In this document: positions 17,967 to 56,603 of the stretch, one piece after another
How positions within the stretch are numbered: position 1 is the stretch's first letter
Layout of the letters: each line of letters starts with the position of its first letter
Virus record (IMG/VR): IMGVR_UViG_3300029999_000001
Span: 3,557 to 67,556 of that record
Reading direction: 5' to 3' (one strand)
DNA: 64,000 bases
Origin: a virus
Position numbers and translations under genes: made by a program
Notes under the pieces: model-generated
Database searches by the model: none
Seen by the model: the letters and a program-made list of their open reading frames with translations, nothing else
What the model was told of the DNA's origin: nothing

Positions 17967-18140
17967 CGGCCCCGGCCCGGTGACGGGCCGCCCCTAGCTG
18001 TACTGACCGCCAGCCTTCCGGGCTGGTGCCGCTGGTGACGGCGGACGGCAGAAATGGTCGGTCGACCCCTGGCCCCGTGCCTGACGCGCGGGGCCTTTCG
18101 CATGCCCAGACCACATTTCCCCAGCCCGGAAGGCACAGCC
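17967..18140 (+). promoter_or_regulatory. Structured leader of the major capsid gene
   Basis: Several hairpins; 18013-18026 is the exact reverse complement of 18121-18134, which contains the GGAAGG RBS. Confidence 0.65.
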
Positions 18141-23929: not shown

Positions 23930-24358
23930 GTGGCATACGCCAACCGCGTCATCACGAAGCACTTCACTGAGCTTGTGGAGCCCGGCGATGACATCTGGGT
24001 GACCATCCGCAACCCGCAGCTCATGTCCCCCGGCGAGTTCACGTCCAGCGAGGCAGACCTGGAGACCGGGCCGGACGGGCAGCCGGTCGCGAACGAGGCG
24101 AACAAGCGGGCCGTGAACCGGCTCGGCGCCAAGCTGATCATCGGGATGCGGGTGTATGACCCGACCGCCCCGATCGAACTGGACGACCACGGCAACCCGC
24201 TGCCCACCGCAGAACCGGTGCTGCTGCCGGCCAAGCCGGCAGCCGAGGACGTCGCGAAGTTGCCGATGGGAATCATCAACTGGCTGGCTCAGGAGCTGGC
24301 CAGGGTAAACCCTCAGCAGACCCCGGAGAGCCCGGGGGCTACTGGGAATCCGTCCTAG
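23930..24358 (+). CDS. Tail assembly chaperone (G)
   Basis: Directly after the tail tube; slippery heptamer near the 3' end. Confidence 0.8.
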   Translation: MAYANRVITKHFTELVEPGDDIWVTIRNPQLMSPGEFTSSEADLETGPDGQPVANEANKRAVNRLGAKLIIGMRVYDPTAPIELDDHGNPLPTAEPVLLPAKPAAEDVAKLPMGIINWLAQELARVNPQQTPESPGATGNPS

Positions 24359-52997: not shown

Positions 52998-53606
52998 GTG
53001 GACAACGAAAACGGCAGGCCGCCAGACGCTGACCAGCTACCCGTGCGGCGCATCTCGATCAATCAGGTCGTCGCCTGGAACATGGCCTACTTCCGCCGGA
53101 TAGCGGACATCACCCAGGAAGGACTCGGCGAGCTGATCGGCGGCAGGCCCAAGACCGCCGTCTCCGCCGATGAGCGCTCATGGGACGGGAAACGGACCCG
53201 CGAGTTCGACGCCCACAGCATCACGCTCATCGCCGAGGCGCTCGGTGTGCCGATCATCGCCCTGTTCCTGCCGCCCGAAGACGACGGCCTCAGCGAGCAG
53301 TACGTCTACGACGCCGGCACCGGGCAGGGCTTCATGACCGACCTGATGCAGGCCGTACTCCCCAACACCGGAGACCGGACACCTGTCATGGACGCCTACC
53401 GGAAACGATTTCAGAACGCCGTCACCTACTATGCGGACCCGACGTTCGGTGAGCAGGTCGCCCGGTTCCTGCGGGACGCCACCGACGACGAGCTGCGCGC
53501 CGACCGCGCTTCGCGGATCCGCCAGCGGCAAGCCGACCTTGAGGGAGTGGCCGCCGAGCTCGGGGAGATCGCGGAAGCACTGGAGAACCCGGAGGCTGGC
53601 CAGTGA
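52998..53606 (+). CDS. XRE-type immunity repressor
   Basis: VAWNMAYFRRIADITQEGLGELIG...AVSADER HTH; coupled to the integrase. Confidence 0.75.
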   Translation: MDNENGRPPDADQLPVRRISINQVVAWNMAYFRRIADITQEGLGELIGGRPKTAVSADERSWDGKRTREFDAHSITLIAEALGVPIIALFLPPEDDGLSEQYVYDAGTGQGFMTDLMQAVLPNTGDRTPVMDAYRKRFQNAVTYYADPTFGEQVARFLRDATDDELRADRASRIRQRQADLEGVAAELGEIAEALENPEAGQ

Positions 53607-54991
53607 GCGAACCGGTCTACAAGCGCTGCAAATGCCGCGACGCTGACGGCAAGGACATCGGCGTGTCCTGCCCGAAGCTGAAACGGGCCGACGGGTCATG
53701 GAATCCGAAGCACGGGACGTGGTACTTCGCGCTCGAGCTGCCGCCCGGCCCCGGCGGCAAGCGGCGGCCGAGGCTGCGCCGCGGTGGGTACGAAACACGC
53801 GAGGCGGCGGCGGATGCCCGGGATCAGGCCAGGGCCACGCTCCGCAGGGGCGTTGACCCGTCCGTCAAGACGATGACCGGCAAGTACCTCACCACCTGGC
53901 TCGCTGGCCGCCGCGACCTCAAGCCGACCACCCGGCACAACTACGAGGTCAGCATCAGCACCTACCTGGTCCCGCTGCTGGGGCACATTGAGCTGAGCAG
54001 GCTTCAGCCGGAGCACATCGCGGACGCCTTCGCCACGATCAGGGAATGGAACGACCTGCTTCTCTCGGGGCAGCCGGTCCGCAAGTACCAGCGGCACGTC
54101 GGGCCCGCAGCGATGCAGCGGATCCGCAACGTCCTTCAGTCCGCGCTGCGGGATGCGATCAAGGCACGGATGATCGAGTTCAACGCCGCGAAGCTCGTCA
54201 GCATGGACCCGGTAACGTCCCAGAAGCCGATGATGTGGACGGCTGAGCGGGCACGGAAGTTCTGGGCCGGCTACGAGGAAGCACTCGAAGCCTCTCCGCT
54301 GACCCGCGGGGACAGGGCTTTCCTGGTGTGGCGGTCCGTCGCGCTGCGGCCCTTCCCGGTGATGGTGTGGAATCTGAGCGACCTCGGGGCCTTCCTCGAC
54401 TACGCCGCTGGGCATCGCCTCTCCCCCGTGTTCGAGCTTGCCGCCGGCACGGGGATGCGCCGCGGTGAGCTGTGCGGGCTGCGCTGGACGGATGTGGACC
54501 TGGATCAGAGCATCCTCTACATCACGCCGGGCGGGGTGCGTGTCCAGGCCGGATGGGAAGTCTTCGAAGGCGGCCCGAAGACAGAAGCGGGCGGCCGGGA
54601 GGTCCCGCTCATCGACCAGGACACCGGGACGCTCCGGGCGTGGAAGCGGCAGCAGAACCGGGAGCGGCTCTCCTGGGGCAGCGACTGGCAGGACAGCGGC
54701 CTTGTCTTCACCCATGAGGACGGGTCGGCATGGCACCCGGAGGCTGTGACTGATGCTTTCGAGCGGCTCGCGTTCGCCGCGCATCTCCCGCCGGTCCGGC
54801 TGCATGACATCCGGCACGCGCACATCTCCCAGTTGCTTGCCGCCGGGGTCGATGTCCGGATCGTTTCGGAGCGGGTCGGTCACTCCGGGAGCAAGATGAC
54901 CCGCGACTACGCGGCGGTGGCGGCTGAGGTCTCCCGGCAGGCCGCCGCGACGATTGTCGGGATGATCCCGAGGAAAGCAGGTGGGCAATGA
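53603..54991 (+). CDS. int: Tyrosine integrase
   Basis: GMRRGELCGLRW, PKT, LHDIRH, GHS and DY catalytic residues; N-terminal arm-binding region. Confidence 0.95.
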   Translation: MSEPVYKRCKCRDADGKDIGVSCPKLKRADGSWNPKHGTWYFALELPPGPGGKRRPRLRRGGYETREAAADARDQARATLRRGVDPSVKTMTGKYLTTWLAGRRDLKPTTRHNYEVSISTYLVPLLGHIELSRLQPEHIADAFATIREWNDLLLSGQPVRKYQRHVGPAAMQRIRNVLQSALRDAIKARMIEFNAAKLVSMDPVTSQKPMMWTAERARKFWAGYEEALEASPLTRGDRAFLVWRSVALRPFPVMVWNLSDLGAFLDYAAGHRLSPVFELAAGTGMRRGELCGLRWTDVDLDQSILYITPGGVRVQAGWEVFEGGPKTEAGGREVPLIDQDTGTLRAWKRQQNRERLSWGSDWQDSGLVFTHEDGSAWHPEAVTDAFERLAFAAHLPPVRLHDIRHAHISQLLAAGVDVRIVSERVGHSGSKMTRDYAAVAAEVSRQAAATIVGMIPRKAGGQ

Positions 54992-55200
54992 GCAACAGCC
55001 GCAGTTTCCGCCGCCGCCTGGAGGCGAGCCGCAATGACCGGCGGTCACGGCGCGGCCTGGCGATGACCTCCACGCCATCGCTTAGCACCACGCGCCGATG
55101 GCTGAAGGCGGCTGAAGCCGAAGGCGTCGTGAGGCGCGCGGAGGATCGGCGCACGGGGAAGCCCGGCCGGCCCGCGCATATGTGGGAGCTGGCGCAGTGA
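54988..55200 (+). CDS. Small basic protein (winged-helix fragment-like)
   Basis: LSTTRRWLKAAEAEGVVRR...GRPAHMWEL. Confidence 0.4.
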   Translation: MSNSRSFRRRLEASRNDRRSRRGLAMTSTPSLSTTRRWLKAAEAEGVVRRAEDRRTGKPGRPAHMWELAQ

Positions 55201-55215
55201 TTGGCGTGATTCCGG

Positions 55216-55497
55216 GCGGACTCCAAATGGACTCCCCCGCACCGCTCCGGGTGGGGGGCCGGAAAACGGCAGATGCGCGGCCGCATGCCCAGGGCCTATG
55301 GGTGGGAGCCGGTGAGCGGATTCGAACCGCTGACCTGCCGTTTACAAGACGCCGGGAGTTCATGTCGCCCGAAATAGACTCATGTCGGGCACATGGAGTT
55401 CGCGCAGGTCAGGGGAGAGGCAGATCAGCTTTCCGGGTCATCTCGTATCGCCTCAAAAGGCCCAACTCCAGGCCGTGCGGACTCCAAATGGACTCCC
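55216..55497. mobile_element. attP site with arm-type repeats
   Basis: Perfect 21-bp direct repeat GCGGACTCCAAATGGACTCCC at 55216-55236 and 55477-55497, flanking a tRNA-derived core, immediately downstream of int. Confidence 0.85.
55303..55351 (-). other. att core: 3' half of tRNA-Thr(UGU)
   Basis: Minus strand CGT-CTTGTAA-ACGGC-AGGTC-AGCGG-TTCGAAT-CCGCT-CACCGGCTCC; no D-arm or 5' acceptor strand upstream. Confidence 0.88.
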
Positions 55498-55525: not shown

Positions 55526-55738
55526 GTGACCGGGAAAGTGATCACCGAGGGGACTCCTGTCGTCATCACGGACGCCTTCGGGAAAGAATGGCCGACGACC
55601 GCACTCAGCGGCGTCGAAATCAAGGGCCACAGCTTCCCGGTGATATGGGTCAAGCGCCCGCTGACGGCAGGCGGCTGGGACAAGGCTCCATGGCCGGCCG
55701 AATCGGTCCGGCTGGCCCGGCCTAGTGAGACCCGGTGA
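55526..55738 (+). CDS. Small hypothetical protein
   Basis: GAAGGGGGGAG RBS before GTG 55526. Confidence 0.6.
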   Translation: MTGKVITEGTPVVITDAFGKEWPTTALSGVEIKGHSFPVIWVKRPLTAGGWDKAPWPAESVRLARPSETR

Positions 55739-55813
55739 GGCAGCGGCCCGCGGTCACGTCAGCGTGACCAGCTCGCATGAGCTAGGCGTCTTGCGTACCG
55801 GGGCCGCTGCCTC
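55737..55813 (-). ncRNA. Candidate structured RNA 1 (multibranch)
   Basis: 13-bp closing stem GAGGCAGCGGCCC/GGGCCGCTGCCTC enclosing GGTCACG/CGTGACC and AGCTC/GAGCT hairpins. Confidence 0.5.
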
Positions 55814-55816
55814 TTC

Positions 55817-55917
55817 TGGTGGCGGGGAGACAGGGACCAGCCTTCCGGGCCGCTGGCGCCCGCCGGCACTGGCCGCTTACGCGGGGGCCGGGCAATCCCA
55901 TCCCTGAACGTCTCCCC
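55817..55917 (-). ncRNA. Candidate structured RNA 2 ending in GCCACCA
   Basis: GGGGAGAC/GTCTCCCC plus AGGGA/TCCCT closing stems; GTAA and GGAA (GNRA) loops on the minus strand. Confidence 0.55.
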
Positions 55918-55933
55918 AAACGGGAATTCTGTG

Positions 55934-56041
55934 AGTGCCGGGTGAGGCTGCCGCCCGGGCCATTTGTGTCGGACACTCCAGCCGTGCACTGCCTCGGCGT
56001 CCAGCTACCGCACTGCGAAGTGCGTGCACCTTCCCGGCACT
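55934..56041 (-). ncRNA. Candidate structured RNA 3
   Basis: 9-bp closing stem AGTGCCGGG/CCCGGCACT; internal TGCAC/GTGCA and GCACT/AGTGC helices; starts 3 nt after the tRNA. Confidence 0.5.
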
Positions 56042-56044
56042 ACG

Positions 56045-56118
56045 TGGCGGAGACGTGATTTGAACACGCGACCTCTGAGTTATGAGCCCAGCGAGCTACC
56101 GAACTGCTCCACTCCGCT
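56045..56118 (-). tRNA. tRNA-Met(CAU), initiator (fMet)-type
   Basis: AGCGGAG-TG-GAGC-AGTTCGGTA-GCTC-G-CTGGG-CTCATAA-CTCAG-AGGTC-GCGTG-TTCAAAT-CACGT-CTCCGCC-A; 1:72 mismatch; CCA not encoded. Confidence 0.93.
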
Positions 56119-56127
56119 GTGATCATC

Positions 56128-56514
56128 TTACCGATGCCGTCTCCGCTTCGCCCGCAATGACGGCTTGACGTGCAGCGCCGGGCCGGAGTTCGCGCACGGG
56201 TTGCAGGTGGCGCAGCGGATGTGAGCGCTGGGGTTGCTGGCCGCGTGATAGTCGTGGGCGGCGAAAAGGGGCTGCAGCGTCGCCGCCATCCGCTGAAAGC
56301 CCCGCATGAGCGAGGTTACTTCCGGGATGACGATCACGTTGTAGTAGTAGGTGCTGTGCCGCAGAACGCTCCACCGTTCCGGCCAGATTGCGCCGCCCCC
56401 GTCGCAGATGATCCGTCCGGCGTCCGGGTTCCACCGCATCGCGTCGCTGCTGGTCGTGGAGTCCTCAAGGGCGCCGTCGATCGCGGCGAGGACGCCGGGA
56501 GTGTCAGTGGTCAC
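56128..56514 (-). CDS. Hypothetical protein (leaderless)
   Basis: CAGAAT 7 nt before GTG 56514; HIRCATCNPCAN near the C-terminus. Confidence 0.55.
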   Translation of the reverse strand: MTTDTPGVLAAIDGALEDSTTSSDAMRWNPDAGRIICDGGGAIWPERWSVLRHSTYYYNVIVIPEVTSLMRGFQRMAATLQPLFAAHDYHAASNPSAHIRCATCNPCANSGPALHVKPSLRAKRRRHR

Positions 56515-56603
56515 GGCTACCATTCTGCACGGCAACGGCCCGGAACCAGCGCTCTGGGCGCGATCCCGGGCCGCTCAGGGCCGTGGTGGGCGCGGCCCTG
56601 GTC

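Follow-up and report, generated by a model that had tools for sequence, protein, structure and literature searches.

Between a protein-coding gene on one strand and a tRNA-Met gene on the other, the phage genome studied here holds a stretch with no obvious product, and the question raised by this locus is whether it encodes structured RNA, and if so, how many RNAs and of which kind. The DNA analyzed, here called the window, is a stretch of 64,000 nucleotides taken from an IMG/VR phage record that is 100,323 bp long and has a GC content of 67%; near-identical DNA is found in many peat metagenome runs. A first-pass annotation had described three stem-closed units behind the minus-strand tRNA-Met gene and had proposed that these are separate RNAs, cut out of one transcript together with the tRNA and possibly belonging to undescribed classes. 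The three units are present as described, with corrected coordinates, all on the minus strand. Unit 1 (55737-55813) is closed by a perfect 13-bp stem (55737-55749 with 55801-55813), unit 2 (55821-55933) by an 8-bp stem (55824-55831 with 55910-55917) continued by five further pairs (55832-55836 with 55901-55905), and unit 3 (55934-56041), a spacer of 108 nt between the tRNA and unit 2, by a 9-bp stem (55934-55942 with 56033-56041). Read on the tRNA strand, unit 3 comes first and begins 3 bases after the discriminator of tRNA-Met, and GNRA-type loops were also found on this strand, both as had been noted. Also, the reported lack of a credible ORF was confirmed: the frames across the 305 bp of 55739-56043 do not have the GC3 bias of the real genes in this DNA, and the public gene calls on identical contigs place nothing between the convergent 70-aa gene and the tRNA. 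In comparison with shuffled sequences, the entire 319 nt fold with a z of about -3 on either strand, and among the single units unit 1 alone is exceptional (z -6.2; unit 3 -1.9; unit 2 -1.0). Therefore, thermodynamics alone would not pick out unit 2; it is covariation across homologues that does.

The gene order (integrase, attP, tRNA, regulator) identifies the location as the lysogeny region of a temperate phage, in which the three units lie between convergent transcription units with attP on one flank and the repressor on the other. A tyrosine integrase gene (53603-54991, plus strand) is followed by a 70-aa ORF (54988-55200) and by the attP core (55305-55349, minus strand). The core corresponds to the 3′ half of tRNA-Thr(UGU), from the anticodon loop to the acceptor end, and all 45 of its 45 bases are matched in an actinomycete MAG contig (L012:7783-7827). 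It is flanked by 25-bp direct repeats CGGACTCCAAATGGACTCC (55212-55236 and 55473-55497), which are likely the arm-type sites of the integrase; one copy of this repeat was also seen just 3′ of the integrase gene in L012. We had considered units 1 to 3 as part of attP, and rejected this because core and arm repeats occupy 55212-55497 instead; the core is 390 bp away from the non-coding stretch, and core and repeats together keep a distance of at least 240 bp from unit 1. In two related loci (L084:1565-1640 and L095:2202-2274), tRNA-Thr is present in full length, in contrast to the 3′ half in the window phage, and since the full gene in L084 sits between the RNA motif and the integrase, the attP of that phage seems to be an entire tRNA gene.

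The non-coding region is bounded on its other side by the second, convergent 70-aa gene (55526-55738, plus strand), which has a ribosome binding site, is called on identical JGI and ENA contigs and overlaps the first bases of unit 1 with its stop codon; no Pfam or PHROG match was obtained for its longer frame. Upstream of tRNA-Met lies a 135-aa gene (56128-56535, minus strand) and next to it a gene for an XRE-type regulator. The 135-aa protein is cysteine-rich and has no Pfam or PHROG family, no known domain, a poor Atlas model and no recognizable fold. Members of its family are often encoded just upstream of the RNA motif described below (window, L030, L047, L072 and L082; farther off in L041), and in L030:1463-3132 the family gene stands directly after a gene for the RNA ligase RtcB. 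At the ends of the record, one FtsK-like gene is split, with the end of the motor domain at the last bases and the gamma domain at the first bases in a shifted frame, which makes a circular or permuted molecule probable, its record lacking a few bases where the ends meet.

For a comparative analysis, the nine public contigs of the same phage are uninformative about variation, since they agree at 100% in this region. A true relative, L030, was found via a 49%-identical homologue of the 135-aa gene; it carries units 1 and 2 at 72% identity and neither a tRNA nor unit 3. Its conserved blocks were converted into DNA patterns, by which more copies were found in viral contigs and then in soil and peat metagenome contigs. 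From 18 copies the covariance model R1 was built, which scores unit 2 of the window at 120.7 bits and was then used on bacterial genomes. Another viral copy, L036, is more distant; it was recovered with a pattern that leaves out the 5′ tail, is matched by the covariance model and is the one real case among eight viral matches of the 16-mer GGCGGGGAGACAGGGA. Altogether, 32 members were obtained from viral contigs, soil and peat metagenome contigs and actinomycete genomes. In the genomes, copies occur in 4 of 151 of the order to which the MAG matching attP belongs, in 10 of 151 of one family and in 0 of 151 of a phylum-wide sample; as far as sampled, the motif thus appears to be confined to one actinomycete order. 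The genome copies are located at prophage module borders, before terminase or after lysis genes, and in phage contigs the motif mostly lies 1-2 kb from an integrase. The sequence conservation of unit 2 equals that of the neighboring genes. Viral contigs scanned for exact matches to unit 1 and to the tRNA gave none, patterns for the integrase and the 135-aa gene gave no viral relatives, DNA-pattern scans of the genome collection gave chance matches only, among the matches listed, and isolated phages and plasmids gave short chance matches only and no members.

Unit 2 consists of a 5′ tail (AUUCCCGUU), the stacked helices P1 and P1b, a three-way junction, a variable P2 and a P3 with an H-type pseudoknot, and covariation was detected in all six helices (P1, P1b, P2, P2a, P3 and the pseudoknot). 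In an earlier set of 19 sequences, 14 of 27 pairs showed compensatory changes, and 0 of 500 shuffles scored as high. With 30 distinct sequences, in an alignment fitted to the structure of the model as for most of the pair counts given here, 93.5% of the cells are standard-paired versus 40-55% in controls slid by 1-3 columns, and 23 of 31 pairs have changes on both sides, with 0 of 500 shuffles reaching any of these measures. P1 is formed by GGGGAGAC/GUCUCCCC in most members and by GGAGGAUC/GAUCCUCC, GGGGUGAC/GUCACCCC and others in genome copies. The exception with respect to the alignment is the pseudoknot, which was first spotted by eye and is not contained in the search model, so that its test is not biased by the alignment. 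Four junction bases before P3 pair here with the P3 loop, and all variants (GGGC/GCCC, GAGC/GCUC, AGGC/GCCU, CAGC/GCUG, CGGU/ACCG and CGGC/GCCG) are complementary; 98.6% of the cells are paired, and three of the four pairs covary, as do all four on the 30 distinct sequences. Invariant unpaired bases are CC in the 5′ tail (UCCC) and GG in the first junction. A pairing of the tail UCCC with the junction GGG was tried and set aside as unproven, the fourth pair being U-A in the majority, C-G in one member and U·U in six. The length of the motif ranges from 81 to 146 nt via insertions and deletions that are not multiples of three, which shows that it is not coding sequence. Judged by these comparisons, unit 2 is a real structured RNA.

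The paired positions also indicate the strand, because 31 G·U cells stand against 12 A·C cells when the RNA is read on the minus strand of the window, which is that of the tRNA; relatives of unit 1 add two more G·U pairs on this sense. Relatives of the motif are present on contigs from RNA libraries of a rhizosphere study and of a viral RNA fraction, which is a weak hint of expression, taken from contigs that by their nature cannot show RNA ends or strand. The RNA runs matched only host-like tRNA pieces, unit 2 relatives and the stretch 56445-56600 of the window phage, and the units of this phage itself were not covered, which carries no weight in either direction. The match to 56445-56600 comes from a 750-nt contig of the only metatranscriptome with this phage, a peat sample; it is identical to the phage from 56445 onward, inside the 135-aa gene toward the XRE regulator. 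Expression of the lysogeny-side genes in situ is one possible reading, carry-over of DNA into the library another.

In nearly all members, a GC-rich stem-closed element soon follows P1, typically within 8-14 nt. These elements range from a simple hairpin to a branched domain, their arms are wholly different between groups yet complementary, and a few have a U-rich tail after the hairpin (L302, L297). In the window, this element is unit 1, a branched hairpin with homologues in L072, L047, L084 and L030 that have kept both arms and two interior blocks. Its interior of 51 nt is branched, and a U-tract is absent, which is why a consensus terminator scan returned 0 sites. Terminators without a U-tract are common in actinobacteria. 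Unit 1 thus shares with terminators the GC-rich stem that closes a transcription unit, here at a convergent junction, and departs from them in lacking the short loop and the U-tract. It is likely the closing hairpin of the RNA, as a bidirectional terminator or a 3′ protective domain, and would also end the convergent 70-aa gene. In three genome copies (L295, L305 and L307), a hairpin domain about 10-50 nt after the motif has a conserved core GCCGCACCACGGCUGGGC and outer stems that differ and are still complementary; it represents a second, likewise conserved form of the closing domain.

Unit 3 behaves differently. No homologue was detected in any fetched locus, and in relatives the tRNA adjoins the motif without it. 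A resemblance of 17 of 20 nt to the 3′ arm of unit 1 is scored as high by 7 of 500 shuffles. Unit 3 is best seen as a phage-lineage-specific insertion or a decayed duplicate that now acts as a spacer. The idea of three separate RNAs therefore had to be given up: unit 1 is likely the terminator-like hairpin domain that closes the unit 2 RNA, and unit 3 has marginal stability and no homologue. What remains of the proposed undescribed RNA classes is a single one, with unit 2 as a family that is absent from Rfam 15 and shows strong covariation.

The tRNA-Met (CAU) gene (56045-56118, minus strand) reaches 58.6 bits with Rfam RF00005, and ARAGORN agrees. It is initiator-like, with an A1·C72 mismatch, A11:U24 and a G·U in the middle of the G-C run of the anticodon stem, and its CCA is not encoded. 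A -10-like box TAAGAT (56125-56130, minus strand) lies 6 nt before base 1 of the tRNA and overlaps the TAA stop of the upstream 135-aa gene; a consensus sigma-70 scan detected no promoter at this box. A hexamer of the form TAnnnT (TAGGCT, TAAGAT, TAGAAT and similar) is found 9-10 nt before the model start in 15 of the 32 members, and the box before the tRNA-Met of the window is of the same type. From base composition, the chance of TAnnnT at two fixed positions is estimated at about 1%. Upstream tRNAs, always on the same strand, were found in 6 of the 32 members, at distances from 2 to over 100 nt. Only 2-3 nt lie between the end of tRNA-Met and the motif in L081, L111 and L095, this gap is 38 nt in L068, and in L079 a tRNA-Trp is located 85 nt upstream. 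In the window, 3 nt separate tRNA-Met from unit 3 and more than 110 nt separate it from unit 2. Co-transcription with tRNA-Met is a recurring arrangement, as the motif stands 3′ of tRNA-Met on the same strand in four other contigs, and this agrees with the suggested polycistronic transcript; the 15 members mentioned have a TAnnnT box of their own. Thus, the RNA would be made either from its own promoter or as a tRNA trailer. As no promoter was found between unit 3 and unit 2, expression in the window phage depends on read-through of unit 3.

We then asked whether the RNA is known under another name. With the covariance models of Rfam 15, only the tRNA passed in the window, the other matches up to E 10 on 1 kb being sub-threshold noise of the miRNA type, and no match was obtained up to E 10 in eight relatives either. 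A literature search did not find a published description of this RNA. Among 8,495 candidate motifs from IMG/VR (PMC10690425) are unnamed ones labeled DNAVirus_X, and the unit 2 RNA may be one of these. It resembles such orphan phage RNA motifs (Rfam; PMC10690425) in being supported by covariation, having no assigned function and occurring on contigs of uncultivated phages, and differs from those in Rfam in being absent from release 15.

The end of unit 2, GTCTCCCC-G-CCA-CCA, had been likened to an acceptor stem with discriminator and CCA. This end is present in the window phage, but only GCC is conserved in the relatives, and the bases after it vary (ACCA, GCGA, CUGA, UGAU and others). As the first-pass annotation had noted, unit 2 has no T-loop; since, in addition, neither ARAGORN nor RF00005 gave a match in units 1 to 3, aminoacylation is left without support. 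With ACCA not conserved and the T-loop absent, unit 2 as a tRNA-like acceptor was rejected. A certain likeness to tRNA-like molecules and to the bacterial Y RNA YrlA consists in the 13-bp stacked closing helix, the 3′ GCC(ACCA) and the presence of RtcB nearby in one relative; in contrast to both, unit 2 lacks the T-loop and matches neither the tRNA nor the YrlA model, and RtcB is absent from the window phage. A retron-type array was not supported, with no RVT_1 match to a reverse transcriptase in the 100-kb record.

Of the readings considered, we favor with moderate confidence that units 2 and 1 together form one minus-strand RNA of about 200 nt, which represents a new family, is a trailer of tRNA-Met in this phage, and likely is a stable trans-acting RNA that binds a protein or a small ligand. 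In this reading, structure and family are the firm part; processing and function are deduced, and function is the weakest step. From its 5′ tail, the RNA would run through P1 and P1b into the three-way junction with P2 and the P3 pseudoknot, continue in a purine-rich linker of 8-14 nt and end with the unit 1 hairpin. In the window phage, the TAAGAT promoter would drive the initiator-like tRNA-Met with the RNA as its 3′ trailer, tRNA 3′-end processing would free the RNA, and unit 3 would be carried along as a lineage-specific leader. In most relatives, a promoter box of the same type would drive the RNA directly. Thereby, the element would be an autonomous promoter-(or tRNA-)RNA-terminator cassette at module borders, comparable to moron genes, and its most likely function would be that of a stable trans-acting RNA for a protein or a small ligand. 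By its distribution, the family seems to be carried by temperate phages and prophages of large-genome actinomycetes.

A small RNA derived from a tRNA 3′ external transcribed spacer is 3′ETS-leuZ of E. coli, a short and simply folded host sponge that is freed by tRNA processing. The RNA described here is similar in being a small RNA in the position of a tRNA trailer, and differs in its complex pseudoknotted fold, in being phage-borne and in having its own promoter more often. No partner protein or ligand was indicated, and a search in the window for trans targets with the complement of the conserved 5′ tail gave 8 matches versus 6.5 expected, i.e. no enrichment. The elaborate fold with its invariant junction bases speaks against a trans-acting RNA to some degree, as it is rather what one would expect of a ribozyme or a riboswitch aptamer than of an ordinary small RNA acting in trans, and this makes a self-cleaving ribozyme and a cis-acting read-through switch serious rivals. 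Complex pseudoknotted RNAs with such covariation are rare, and the characterized ones are mostly ribozymes, riboswitches or parts of ribonucleoproteins. A more far-reaching possibility, which we put forward tentatively, is that unit 2 represents the first known case of a new class of functional RNA, either a self-cleaving ribozyme fold or a ligand- or polymerase-binding gate for read-through at prophage borders, spread as a mobile promoter-RNA-terminator cassette that sometimes stands behind an initiator-like tRNA. The repeated coupling to an initiator-like phage tRNA-Met echoes the tRNA-ribozyme pairs of gut phages in a different phage world. As cultured genomes carry copies, the function can be tested directly in lysogens.

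Among the rivals to a trans-acting RNA, the one that survives best, although we consider it rather unlikely, regards unit 2 as a cis-acting sensor, either a riboswitch aptamer or a polymerase-modifying put-like RNA, that decides between stop and read-through at unit 1. Here, read-through would cross attP and run antisense to an xis-like gene and int; elsewhere it would enter downstream genes. The order of promoter, aptamer-like fold, short linker and strong hairpin in nearly all members is what such a gate would look like, and co-directional genes do follow the hairpin in L041 (AAA ATPase), L042, L103 and a prophage HNH-terminase module. However, the hairpin is followed by a convergent gene in about 10 of 16 contexts, and a recurring gene family downstream is missing. 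By eye, P2 segments repeat or complement a hairpin arm in several members; as these alternative pairings are short and GC-rich, they may be due to chance. A classical riboswitch was rejected, since the motif is followed by a co-directional gene in only about 6 of 16 contexts, with functions that have no relation to one another (AAA ATPase, HNH-terminase module, TnpB and others).

Somewhat less probable still is that unit 2 belongs to a new class of self-cleaving ribozymes and serves to trim either tRNA-Met on its 3′ side or itself at the 5′ end. The argument for this rests on the three members in which tRNA-Met ends 2-3 nt before the motif, on the pseudoknotted fold with invariant bases in the junction and 5′ tail, on the RtcB ligase gene two genes upstream in L030, and on the comparison with theta ribozymes, which occur within 5 nt of the 3′ ends of phage tRNAs with tRNA-Met among the commonest partners (PMC10879173). 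Like these, the motif is a structured pseudoknotted RNA that can follow immediately after a phage tRNA of the same strand, in many cases tRNA-Met, and that also occurs without a tRNA; the similarity of the context is striking. Theta ribozymes, however, form a nested double pseudoknot of P1, P1.1, P2 and P3, whereas unit 2 has a closing helix around a three-way junction with a local H-type pseudoknot, is about twice as large and occurs in soil actinomycete phages instead of gut phages. An HDV-like or theta assignment by fold (7-bp P1 from the cleavage site, P1.1, catalytic C in J4/2) was rejected, as a P3/L3 hairpin is missing from between the first two strands and the possible 5′ pairing comprises only 3-4 bp. 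No HDV or other ribozyme model of Rfam matched in the window or in the eight relatives. A location within about 5 nt of a tRNA 3′ end is seen in 3 of 32 members. Against a ribozyme also stand the limitation of upstream tRNAs to 6 of 32 members with the variable spacing given above, the promoter box in 15 members and the absence of RtcB from the window phage.

That the three units have no specific function as RNA and are merely terminators rich in GC, or palindromes that arose by chance between convergent genes, is very improbable, although the position between a plus-strand gene and a minus-strand tRNA, the stability of unit 2 no greater and that of unit 3 only marginally greater than that of shuffles, the missing homologues of unit 3 and the fit of unit 1 to an actinobacterial terminator without U-tract all agree with it: the six covarying helices including the pseudoknot and the strand asymmetry exclude it for unit 2, which moreover is as conserved as the neighboring genes. 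It stays a fair description of unit 3 and in part of unit 1. We give equally little credit to a role of the RNA in priming or controlling prophage replication, modeled on the non-coding RNA beside parABS that is needed for extrachromosomal replication of non-RepA cluster A mycobacteriophages (PMC7157519), for the similarity lies in the neighborhood, an actinophage RNA at the genome center between the integration/partition cassette and the rightward early genes, and in the possibly circular molecule with its split FtsK-like gene, but there is no sequence similarity to that RNA and no sequence match to any isolated phage, the window phage and many relatives carry an integrase and attP, and prophage copies also lie at other module borders (before terminase, after lysis genes).

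Some further observations were made along with the trans-acting RNA proposed here. A 14-mer common to the P3 arm and to 18010-18023 was considered as a conserved trans-pairing and rejected: at 18010-18023 it belongs to a separate, simple hairpin, the P3 arm covaries freely among homologues, and a genome with an identical P3 has no second copy. At 24158-24247 (minus strand), ARAGORN called a 90-nt 'tRNA-???' with a two-base anticodon, which has no Rfam confirmation and is therefore probably a false call. In L048:5284-5378, the motif breaks off within the 3′ strand of the closing helix and runs into a vWA-like coding sequence, and it is intact at this place in four other contigs; the break may stem from a rearrangement, from recombination at this point or from a chimeric assembly. 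In L078:20-1231, a TnpB gene (OrfB_IS605 / Cas12f-like) lies about 100 nt after the hairpin domain on the same strand, probably as an IS insertion beside the cassette.
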